Below, piece by piece: positions 4,761 through 6,686 of a stretch of 64,000 nucleotides of DNA. The position numbers and the translations under genes are program-made. Within the stretch, counting starts at the first letter, position 1; the number at the start of each line of letters is the position of its first letter. Origin of the DNA: Escherichia phage vB_EcoM_SA21RB; sequence record OL960580, one strand, 5' to 3'. The notes under the pieces were generated by a model. It ran no database searches. It was not told the origin of the DNA and saw only the letters and a list, made by a program, of their open reading frames with translations.

Positions 4761-4788
4761 CTAAAAAGCCCAACCTTTCGGTTGGGGC
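4761..4788 (-). terminator. hairpin terminator (GCCCAACC-TTTC-GGTTGGGGC); near-identical copy at 5321-5347
   Basis: Inverted repeat followed by U-run on minus strand. Confidence 0.5.
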
Positions 4789-5270: not shown

Positions 5271-5310
5271 CTTATTTCCTGTTTTAATTCGTAGATTTAA
5301 TATACTACTA

Positions 5311-5318
5311 TATTTATA
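5311..5318 (-). promoter_or_regulatory. T4 late promoter TATAAATA upstream of internal protein gene
   Basis: Exact reverse-complement TATAAATA about 40 nt upstream of ATG at 5270. Confidence 0.55.
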
Positions 5319-5320
5319 CT

Positions 5321-5347
5321 AAAAAGCCCCAACCTTTCGGTTGGGGC
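5321..5347 (-). terminator. rho-independent terminator at 3-prime end of the tRNA/stable RNA operon
   Basis: 9-bp GC-rich stem GCCCCAACC/GGTTGGGGC, TTTC loop, U-run on minus strand. Confidence 0.6.
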
Positions 5348-5350
5348 TAA

Positions 5351-5664
5351 GCCTTGCGGCAACCTTGTCGGGGTTCCACCTGCTAAGGCAAGTGTTTGTA
5401 CGAAACGCCGGGATTCGAACCCGGTTATTAAGCAGTTGACGCTACTTAATATTTTTAAAAGGCCATATCTCGACCATATCCGAACGTTCCGTCAAAAACG
5501 CTACTCGGCTTACGGCAAAGATATTTCCTCGAATCGATAATTCGGTGCGCCGTTTCTGCTGTGGTGTAAGGGGATATTAATAAATCGTAAAGATTTATTA
5601 AGACCAGTCCTTACGCAGGGAACATCAGTCCGACGACTTACCGGTAGCGACCCGGTTTCTTGTT
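5351..5664 (-). ncRNA. structured stable-RNA region downstream of tRNA-Arg, containing a tRNA-like domain; probable counterpart of T4 stable RNAs C and D
   Basis: No ORF; tRNA-like T-arm CCGGG-TTCGAAT-CCCGG with pairing acceptor arms CGGAACG/CGTTTCG plus several further hairpins; boundaries not determined. Confidence 0.35.
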
Positions 5665-5740
5665 TGGTCGAGGCAGTAGGGATCGAACCTACGACCTAGG
5701 ACTTAGAAGGTCCTTGCTCTTCCTTCTGAGCTATGCCCCG
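5665..5740 (-). tRNA. tRNA-Arg (anticodon UCU)
   Basis: Manual cloverleaf: acceptor CGGGGCA/TGCCTCG, anticodon loop CTTCTAA, T-loop TTCGATC, CCA encoded. Confidence 0.8.
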
Positions 5741-5744
5741 TAAT

Positions 5745-5820
5745 TGGGGTGACCGATGGGAGTCGAACCCATGACTACGAGAATCACAATCTCGAGTTCT
5801 ACCAACTGAACTACGGCCAC
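5745..5820 (-). tRNA. tRNA-His (anticodon GUG)
   Basis: Manual cloverleaf: acceptor GTGGCCG/CGGTCAC, anticodon loop TTGTGAT, T-loop TTCGACT, CCA encoded; no encoded G-1. Confidence 0.6.
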
Positions 5821-5934
5821 ATTAATACCTACTCCAACAATCAAGATGTCTTCACACGAAATTAAGAGAAGAGTGATCAGTTCAACCCCGATAATCGCGT
5901 CAAGTAGATATTAATGTGACAGTTGTCACAAATT

Positions 5935-6009
5935 TGGCGGACGTGATAGGATTCGAACCTATAACCAATCGCTTAACAGGCGATCGCTCTGCCATTGAGC
6001 TACACATCC
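5935..6009 (-). tRNA. tRNA-Asn (anticodon GUU)
   Basis: Manual cloverleaf: acceptor GGATGTG/CACGTCC, anticodon loop CTGTTAA, T-loop TTCGAAT, CCA encoded. Confidence 0.7.
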
Positions 6010-6013
6010 AAAT

Positions 6014-6100
6014 TGGTGGGGAGTGATGGAGTCGAACCACCCGAGTCGCAATGACAATGGATTTACAGTCCACACCGCTACCTCTACGGGATAACTCCCC
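6014..6100 (-). tRNA. tRNA-Tyr (anticodon GUA), class II with long variable arm
   Basis: Manual fold: acceptor GGGGAGT/ACTCCCC, anticodon loop CTGTAAA, T-loop TTCGACT, 87 nt, CCA encoded. Confidence 0.65.
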
Positions 6101-6113
6101 TTAATTCTTAATT

Positions 6114-6188
6114 TGGTGGCCCTGGGTGGAATTGAACCACCATCTGGCGATTATGAGTCGCTTGCTTGAACCTTCCAGCTACAGGGCC
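6114..6188 (-). tRNA. tRNA with anticodon CAU; by position the T4 tRNA-Ile (lysidine type) homolog, Met not excluded
   Basis: Manual cloverleaf: acceptor GGCCCTG/CAGGGCC, anticodon loop CTCATAA, T-loop TTCAATT, CCA encoded. Confidence 0.7.
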
Positions 6189-6189
6189 T

Positions 6190-6265
6190 TGGTGCTGATT
6201 GACGGAATCGAACCGCCGACCTTCTCATTACAAGTGAGTTGCTCTACCTACTGAGCTAAATCAGC
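6190..6265 (-). tRNA. tRNA-Thr (anticodon UGU)
   Basis: Manual cloverleaf: acceptor GCTGATT/AATCAGC, anticodon loop CTTGTAA, T-loop TTCGATT, CCA encoded. Confidence 0.8.
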
Positions 6266-6270
6266 AAAAC

Positions 6271-6360
6271 TGGCGGAGGCGATAGGATTTGAACCTATGA
6301 GTCGCCGGAGCGACTGCCGGTTTTCAAGACCGGTGCATTAAACCACTCTGCCACGCCTCC
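6271..6360 (-). tRNA. tRNA-Ser (anticodon UGA), class II
   Basis: Manual fold: acceptor GGAGGCG/CGCCTCC, anticodon loop CTTGAAA, long variable arm, T-loop TTCAAAT, 90 nt. Confidence 0.8.
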
Positions 6361-6362
6361 AG

Positions 6363-6436
6363 TCTCCATACAAGGATTTGAACCTTGGACCTCCTGATCC
6401 CAAATCAGGCGCTCTACCAAACTGAGCTACACGGAG
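6363..6436 (-). tRNA. tRNA-Pro (anticodon UGG), CCA not encoded
   Basis: Manual cloverleaf: acceptor CTCCGTG/TATGGAG, anticodon loop TTTGGGA, T-loop TTCAAAT; 2 nt from tRNA-Ser, consistent with a dimeric precursor. Confidence 0.75.
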
Positions 6437-6446
6437 TAAATTAAAT

Positions 6447-6520
<74 letters not shown>

Positions 6521-6525
6521 AAATT

Positions 6526-6612
6526 TGGTGCGAGAAGTGGGACTCGAACCCACAAGGAAATCATTCCGCAGCATTTTAAGTGCTGTGCCTTTACCAATTT
6601 GACCATTCTCGC
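6526..6612 (-). tRNA. tRNA-Leu (anticodon UAA), class II
   Basis: Manual fold: acceptor GCGAGAA/TTCTCGC, anticodon loop CTTAAAA, long variable arm, T-loop TTCGAGT, CCA encoded. Confidence 0.8.
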
Positions 6613-6613
6613 G

Positions 6614-6686
6614 CTGGGAATAAAGGACTCGAACCTTTGCATCCTGGAATCAAAATCCAGTGCCTTACCAACTTGGCTAATTCCCA
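6614..6686 (-). tRNA. tRNA-Gln (anticodon UUG), CCA not encoded, 1 nt from tRNA-Leu
   Basis: Manual cloverleaf: acceptor TGGGAAT/ATTCCCA (U1-A72), anticodon loop TTTTGAT, T-loop TTCGAGT. Confidence 0.8.

Follow-up and report, generated by a model that had tools for sequence, protein, structure and literature searches.

The locus and its identity with rnaC and rnaD of T4

The window analysed here is the whole stretch of 64,000 nucleotides from Escherichia phage vB_EcoM_SA21RB (OL960580), and all coordinates refer to it unless another locus is named. Eleven tRNA genes are clustered on its minus strand at 5665-6686 (T4 has eight tRNAs). The interval under study, 5351-5664, comprises 314 nt of the minus strand and lies between tRNA-Arg (5665-5740) and a strong intrinsic terminator. 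A preliminary description, made from the sequence alone, had reported that no ORF is located between tRNA-Arg and the terminator. This was borne out by the present analysis, in which no ORF of at least 60 aa overlapped 5351-5664 and the only overlapping ones were mechanical, TTG-started ORFs of 21-34 aa.

When the interval was used as a BLAST query, 808 phage records were matched, chiefly those of Escherichia and Shigella Tequatrovirus, with the top match being 99% identical. The aligned bases in RB7 (KM606997) are annotated as the ncRNAs rnaD ("species II RNA") and rnaC, directly downstream of tRNA-Arg. The order is identical in T4 (NC_000866), where rnaD and rnaC are annotated as "small, stable RNA; species 2/1 RNA". 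Window coordinates of the two genes were obtained by projecting the T4 and RB7 annotations through a three-way alignment (A1). By this projection, rnaD, the orthologue of T4 species 2 RNA, is about 120 nt long and occupies 5544-5663 on the minus strand, starting 2 nt past the CCA end of tRNA-Arg; its 3' end in the RB7 annotation is 1 nt further, at 5543. A spacer of 6 nt, GAAUUA (5538-5543, minus strand), separates it from rnaC, the orthologue of T4 species 1 RNA, a tRNA-shaped RNA of 139 nt at 5399-5537 on the same strand, which scored 163 bits with the covariance model R1 described below. Spacers like GAAUUA, rich in A/U and 5-6 nt long, lie between the CCA end of the preceding tRNA and rnaC in most other genera (AAUUAU in PG7). 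Compared with T4, rnaC is identical at 136 of 139 positions over its full length and rnaD at 105 of 121. Based on the BLAST matches, the T4 and RB7 annotations and these identities, rnaD and rnaC of this Tequatrovirus are very likely orthologous to the small stable RNAs of T4, species 2 (D) and species 1 (C), respectively, as the preliminary description had supposed.

As elements, rnaC and rnaD are already known, and the interval is a rediscovery of an annotated T4-family RNA pair. RNAs C and D of T4 have been known since the 1970s and are cut from the tRNA operon transcript. RNAC of T4 has been seen by northern blot, and RNAC and rnaD were both classed as late (PMC9697503). Their function was called unknown in a 2010 review (PMC3014915), in a 2022 omics study (PMC9697503) and again in a 2025 evolution study (PMC12685909), in agreement with what the preliminary description had said of it. 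Among the searchable papers, only statements of this kind were found on the function of rnaC and rnaD.

Both RNAs fold better than most shuffled sequences of their own. In comparisons with 200 shuffles, rnaC (5537-5399) gave z = -4.10, with 0 of 200 folding as well, and rnaD (5663-5543) gave z = -2.59, with 4 of 200 folding as well. Homologues of rnaC were recovered from about 750 phage records, and 727 of the 750 cover at least 80% of the query.

A side observation concerns the tRNA gene upstream of the pair. The tRNA-Arg(UCU) of the window (5665-5740) and that of T4 (L002 1674-1748) are strongly divergent, whereas the neighbouring rnaD and rnaC share 87-98% identity. The presence of a divergent tRNA-Arg beside a conserved ncRNA module implies that the tRNA gene has been replaced.

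Secondary structure of rnaC

The comparative analysis of rnaC covered 28 distinct homologous sequences, which represent at least 10 genera of Tevenvirinae, and the covariance model R1 was built from them. True homologues scored 97-164 bits with R1 versus 13-29 bits for ordinary tRNAs. RNAalifold, run unguided, returned five helices, and compensatory double changes were seen at 29 of their 42 pairs. With an explicit model that includes the pseudoknot, 93-94% of the cells were paired and 32-33 of the 49 pairs had changed on both sides, in the MAFFT and covariance-model alignments. None of 500 shuffles reached any of the observed measures, and partners slid by 1-3 columns paired in 35-48% of cells. 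A covariance model and a comparative alignment had been proposed as a check in the preliminary description, and by both the secondary structure of rnaC is conserved across the 28 T4-like homologues. As modelled from these alignments, rnaC is a tRNA-shaped RNA with a four-way junction resembling the cloverleaf.

The acceptor stem of rnaC has 7 bp, is formed by both ends of the RNA and stacks directly on the T-arm. Its 5' strand CGAUUCG (5530-5536, on the minus strand like all other parts of rnaC) pairs with the 3' strand CGUUUCG (5401-5407), which abuts the T-arm as in tRNA. Covariation is found at four of the seven pairs. At pair 3, 12 of the 28 sequences have A-U and 15 have G-C, pair 1 changes from C-G to A-U in PM2, and pairs 4 and 5, which are tandem U.U mismatches in 25 of the 28, are U-A/C-G in Tegunavirus and U-A/U-A in PM2. 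The 5' strand of this stem had earlier been assigned in part to a hairpin CGAAT/ATTCG. Both strings are present, but the hairpin straddles the rnaD/rnaC junction and is not conserved; its 3' arm is the acceptor 5' strand of rnaC, and its 5' arm varies (CAAAT in T4, AGAAT and CTAAT at other loci).

A different acceptor stem had been put forward in the preliminary description, according to which an internal tRNA-like domain at about 5491-5399 would be closed by the arms CGGAACG and CGTTTCG. These arms, at 5491-5485 and 5407-5401, can pair in the window and form a perfect 8 bp in PG7, where a pipeline called a 95-nt "tRNA-Met" on this pairing, and the Rfam tRNA-Sec model gives a sub-threshold match of 17.3 bits over 5400-5492. 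In the alignment of 22 homologues, however, one pair of the helix is open in 9 sequences and another in 5; a single double change is seen, and the 5' strand of the helix is already taken by the loop L3 and the covarying apical stem of P3. The resemblance to an acceptor is caused by the fact that CGUUU occurs twice in T4-type sequences; the repeat is absent in Melville-type ones. The arms are thus not a conserved helix and were rejected as an acceptor on the alignment, in which the same 3' strand covaries with the RNA's own 5' end at 5536-5530 (A-U to G-C, C-G to A-U and U.U to Watson-Crick). An internal tRNA-like domain of this sort is most improbable, and the acceptor stem formed from the two RNA ends is used in what follows.

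The D-stem-like helix P2 consists of 3 bp, AGG (5527-5529) with CCU (5462-5460), which are Watson-Crick in 28 of 28 sequences, with A-U swapped to U-A in PM2. Immediately 5' of the 3' strand of P2 lies an unpaired, conserved GG (5464, 5463). At the site of the tRNA D-loop there is P3 (5465-5524), a 60-nt hairpin of four segments with double changes in 16 of 18 pairs; its sequence is almost wholly different between T4-type and Melville-/Klebsiella-type RNAs, with the same helices retained. An A-rich linker precedes P4 (5426-5451), a 10-bp hairpin at the anticodon/variable-arm position, in which 9 of 10 pairs show double changes. The T-arm (5408-5424), recognised as canonical from the start, is evident both from direct sequence and from covariation. 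It has a 5-bp stem of CCGGG (5424-5420) and CCCGG (5412-5408) around the loop UUCGAAU (TTCGAAT in the DNA, 5419-5413); covariation is seen at two of the pairs (G-C/U-A, C-G/U-A), and pairing holds in 99-100% of the cells. The 3' tail U-A-C-A (5397-5400) comprises a discriminator-like U followed by NCA, the annotated mature end being A5399. This tail is UACA in 23 of the 28 homologues, UUCA in two (Tegunavirus) and a true UCCA in three (kv_tblp5, Marfa and PM2).

One homologue departs from this description. In Erwinia phage Virsaitis27 (L047 1125-1265) the T-loop is disrupted (UGCAUC, 6 nt) and CGCC replaces GGCC. This sequence could represent either a variant or an rnaC in decay.

Probable loop-loop pairing in rnaC

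The preliminary description had noted the lack of a standard anticodon arm, and an arm with a 5-bp stem and a 7-nt loop carrying U33 is indeed absent from rnaC. Its place is taken by the 10-bp P4, the 6-nt loop of which, CGUCAA (L4, 5436-5441), is complementary to the 6-nt apical loop of P3, UUGACG (L3, 5490-5495). The two loops pair in 99.4% of the cells and covary. They are otherwise nearly invariant, and two independent double changes were found across the homologues, one in Tegunavirus (UUGAUG/CAUCAA) and one in the Klebsiella/Marfavirus group (UUGGCG/CGCCAA); four of the six L3:L4 pairs are retained in PM2. By rough reasoning and not by computation, the chance of a matched change would be about 1/18 for one and about 1/324 for two.

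Since the loops are complementary and covary, L3 and L4 probably form, as far as can be judged from sequence comparison, an intramolecular kissing complex which would close rnaC and leave it without an anticodon-like loop. This is the simplest reading because the stems beneath both loops also strongly covary. Points against it are that the support from the loops themselves consists of the two independent double changes only, and that not all six pairs are kept in PM2.

Sequence downstream of rnaC and elsewhere in the cluster

The 3' trailer, from the end of rnaC to the terminator (5350-5398), is identical to T4 at 47 of 50 positions, almost matching the conservation of rnaC. Folding predicts a hairpin in it, CACUUGC-CUUA-GCAGGUG (5377-5394, minus strand), in which a G-C pair is changed to A-U in a metagenomic relative (locus L043). 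The intrinsic terminator of the tRNA/rnaD/rnaC unit (5320-5348, minus strand) was located by a terminator scan and by folding; it has a 10-bp stem with seven G-C pairs, a GAAA loop and a U-run, with the stem proper at 5348-5325 and the U-run after it.

Several further features were observed near the unit. The terminator hairpin CCCAACCGAAAGGTTGGG with its T-run is nearly duplicated, at 5325-5348 and at 4769-4786 (minus strand), the first copy following rnaC and the second the next gene downstream. A T4 late-promoter-like sequence, TATAAATA, is located at about 5310-5317 (minus strand), directly past the terminator and upstream of a 157-aa ORF (5270-4797), and is found at the same spot in several relatives. 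The spacer between tRNA-Asn and tRNA-His (5821-5934, minus strand, 114 nt) contains no ORF of at least 60 aa and has a fold z of -2.98; it occurs with 80-87% identity beside tRNA-His in T4-like phages of other host groups, among them those of Klebsiella and Raoultella (355 records). This spacer might be a further structured RNA, or it might serve as a processing or promoter element.

Distribution and conservation of rnaC

Homologues of rnaC are present in Mosigvirus (RB69), Gaprivervirus (VR7), Karamvirus (PG7, PS49 and Pet-CM3-4), Moonvirus (Moon and NM4.3), Winklervirus, Tegunavirus, Gelderlandvirus (Melville), Kanagawavirus, Mosugukvirus (PM2) and Marfavirus, and in other Klebsiella, Edwardsiella and Citrobacter phages. 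No Rfam family was assigned to 5351-5664 at gathering or permissive thresholds, and the sub-threshold matches were noise. Pattern scans of IMG/VR and the JGI metagenomes returned only lineages already found, plus false positives that were rejected by R1, and a scan of GTDB bacterial genomes gave 10 pattern matches, none of which scored with R1, so no host-encoded counterpart was found; these scans required exact patterns, and divergent relatives would be missed by them.

Two further candidates were set aside. A second match in Citrobacter phage Moon (L009 1074-1189, 29 bits) was recognised on inspection as an ordinary tRNA. A phage tRNA-Ser globally aligned to R1 reached 27.7 bits through the acceptor stem and T-arm alone, which is uninformative on origin.

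The rnaC locus is widely mis-annotated. In PG7 it appears as the 95-nt "tRNA-Met" mentioned above (L003 1554-1648). CDSs of a "hypothetical protein", supplied with ribosome-binding sites, were entered for it in Marfa, Klebsiella phage EI and numerous Tequatrovirus records.

The genomic context of rnaC bears on the question of whether the two RNAs act in cis, as 3' modules that shield the tRNA transcript from exonucleases or organise its processing, with the stable RNAs being by-products. Such a role would suit Tequatrovirus, in which the pair closes the tRNA cluster on its 3' side immediately ahead of the terminator and is followed by a trailer that is likewise structured and conserved. However, in Karamvirus, Gelderlandvirus, Winklervirus and others rnaC is internal, between tRNA genes and separated from them by A/U-rich spacers of about 5-8 nt (in PG7 the order is tRNA-Trp, AAUUAU, rnaC and then tRNA-Gly, 4 nt past the tail), and in VR7 and Kosakonia phage 305 it is retained without adjacent tRNAs. 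Moreover, a protective hairpin needs neither an elaborate conserved tertiary pairing nor an NCA tail. Action in cis is therefore quite unlikely.

It could also be argued that rnaC and rnaD are relics devoid of function, which would have arisen from tRNA genes by decay or would be spacer RNA that is stable by accident. The tRNA T-arm and acceptor stem retained by rnaC, the weak detection of real tRNAs by R1 (13-29 bits) and the laboratory tolerance of deletions, to which we return below, are compatible with such an origin. On the other hand, compensatory changes have preserved the non-tRNA helices P3 and P4 and the L3:L4 pairing in at least 10 genera, the conservation of rnaC exceeds that of the adjoining tRNA-Arg (about 98% identity between the window and T4, while the tRNA-Arg genes differ heavily), and rnaC has been kept in genomes that lost the neighbouring tRNAs. 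At the level of sequence, this conservation shows that rnaC is under purifying selection well beyond T4, including in genomes without neighbouring tRNAs. That the two RNAs are mere remnants is hardly credible.

Structure and variation of rnaD

Unlike rnaC, rnaD occurs only in phages of the Tequatrovirus, Mosigvirus and Gaprivervirus type (734 matching records), and in some of these, e.g., RB69, the rnaD-rnaC module follows an ORF instead of tRNA-Arg. Its 5' hairpin (5640-5656, minus strand) was identified by folding and covariation and consists of a 5-bp stem, ACCGG/CCGGU, with an invariant 7-nt loop, GUCGCUA. Among 17 sequences, the closing pair is A-U (9 sequences), G-C (6) or G-U (2). A plus-strand "terminator" called at the same positions (5640-5656) is spurious and corresponds to this hairpin.

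Downstream of it, a long bent hairpin (5545-5637, minus strand) is predicted, the folds of six variants sharing one architecture. Its basal helices (GUCGUCG/CGGCG-AC and CUG/CAG) are invariant and come without covariation support in the 17 sequences, in all of which about 45 nt at the 5' side and about 25 nt at the 3' side of rnaD are constant. The apical domain is variable. It includes the hairpin TTAATAAATC/GATTTATTAA, which the preliminary description had picked out and which is present in the minimum-free-energy fold of rnaD. Comparison of the window (5570-5615) with the loci L031, L006 and L041 revealed that the apical domain has two versions of unrelated sequence in otherwise near-identical phages; both versions fold to a hairpin. 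The occurrence of two unrelated apical versions in an invariant frame suggests a cassette-like replacement of the hairpin. The predicted folds and the sequence comparison support rnaD being a structured RNA with invariant flanks and an exchangeable apical domain. In some records rnaD is overlaid by an annotated ORF, RB69ORF150c or RB51ncORF141c.

The long constant stretches of rnaD (about 45 nt and 25 nt) exceed structural need, which would be expected if rnaC and rnaD were trans-acting small RNAs that regulate host or phage mRNAs by base pairing. The RNAs C and D have also been labelled "small regulatory RNAs", without functional data (PMC9697503). Nevertheless, the two conserved loops of rnaC covary as complements of each other and are hence engaged within the molecule. 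A scan for antisense targets of the two invariant rnaD segments, a weak test that covered the 64-kb window and not the host, returned rnaD itself or matches at chance level. Regulation by base pairing is unlikely on this evidence.

Possible biogenesis and function

The acceptor/T-arm minihelix is the minimal substrate of RNase P, and it is also a ligand of the CCA-adding and T-loop-modifying enzymes. Since the minihelix is a known RNase P substrate, a likely route for the formation of both RNAs would be one that begins with a transcript shared by the tRNAs, rnaD and rnaC. RNase P would cleave this transcript at the 5' end of the rnaC minihelix, which would also free the 3' side of rnaD, and 3' exonucleases would then trim the ends back to the helices. 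The location of rnaC among tRNA genes at tRNA-like distances (about 5-8 nt) and the true UCCA end in three phages both speak for tRNA-like processing.

As regards function, it is tentatively proposed that rnaC might be a non-decoding tRNA mimic, which would engage a tRNA-binding protein through its acceptor/T-arm half as modelled here. The protein so occupied or titrated could be a host tRNA-processing or tRNA-modifying enzyme, or a tRNA-directed defence factor. Against such a mimic, some tRNA-binding proteins may bind rnaC poorly on account of its tandem U.U mismatches and of a tail that reads UACA where a tRNA has CCA. T4 mutants in which the entire tRNA region is deleted grow on laboratory strains, and any function of rnaC and rnaD would then be conditional. 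In a 2025 evolution experiment, the same rnaD SNP appeared in all T4-like phage lines on semi-permissive E. coli (PMC12685909). The recurrence of this SNP hints at a host-specific role, and rnaD might act as a host-specific fitness factor.

Taken to its full extent, the proposal is that rnaC represents an uncatalogued RNA family, absent from Rfam and found in at least 10 enterobacterial Tevenvirinae genera, whose members would be closed, non-decoding tRNA mimics with the D-loop arm kissing the "anticodon" loop by 6 bp, and would serve as a decoy or inhibitor of a host tRNA-binding enzyme or of a tRNA-directed defence nuclease. This remains speculative. T4 is the best-studied phage, and few of its uncharacterised gene products have been known for as long as RNAs C and D; if the closed-mimic reading is true, the 50-year-old question of the role of T4 RNA C becomes testable. 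What the comparison has added to the known pair is a corrected fold, with the acceptor stem formed by the true RNA ends, a covarying loop-loop interaction, selection beyond T4 and the recognition of mis-annotated loci. The corrected model of rnaC and its covariance model offer concrete mutants for functional work and cleaner annotation. No prior description of the cloverleaf-plus-kissing-loop model was found, and it may be new.

Comparison with other RNA classes

The features that rnaC shares with canonical tRNA (RF00005) are a 7-bp acceptor stem made from both ends, the topology of a four-way junction, and an arm with the T-loop UUCGAAU abutting the acceptor 3' strand. Its tail, a discriminator-like base followed by NCA, or by CCA in three of the 28 homologues, resembles the tRNA end in part. 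The gene is likewise embedded among tRNA genes with tRNA-like spacers. In contrast to tRNA, however, rnaC lacks a 7-nt anticodon loop and a U8/N9 linker, its D-loop is a 60-nt hairpin, and most of its members carry tandem U.U mismatches in the acceptor stem. Neither a tRNA nor a tmRNA was found in 5351-5664 by ARAGORN, and RF00005 gave no match there at 29 bits or more, the best match within the clan being the one to tRNA-Sec already mentioned (17.3 bits, E = 1.6). The best non-self matches of R1 are class II tRNAs.

With the tRNA-like domain of tmRNA, rnaC has in common an acceptor/T-arm half that is without an anticodon arm and is joined to a large non-tRNA domain. It differs from tmRNA in size (139 nt versus about 360 nt) and in lacking the G3:U70 pair (pair 3:70 is A-U or G-C in rnaC), the tag reading frame and the pseudoknot ring.

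YrlA and the Y RNA-like RNAs, as well as the tRNA-like RNAs of gammaherpesvirus 68, are non-decoding, tRNA-like modules, some of them encoded by phages or viruses, that are processed by tRNA enzymes and are thought to act through protein binding. YrlA (RF02553) and the gammaherpesvirus-68 RNAs have this concept in common with rnaC, without any sequence relationship. No match to RF02553 was obtained over rnaC, and the sole match in this part of the window (17.7 bits, with a threshold of 69) fell on tRNA genes at 5715-5777. Furthermore, the ends of YrlA form the Ro-binding stem, whereas those of rnaC form the acceptor stem.

Compared with rnaC and rnaD of T4, the pair in the window phage is alike in strand, in lengths and in order (tRNA-Arg, rnaD, rnaC, terminator). 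Nothing essential is different between the two phages in this respect; the differences are in the sequence of the central hairpin of rnaD and in the set of tRNA genes upstream.
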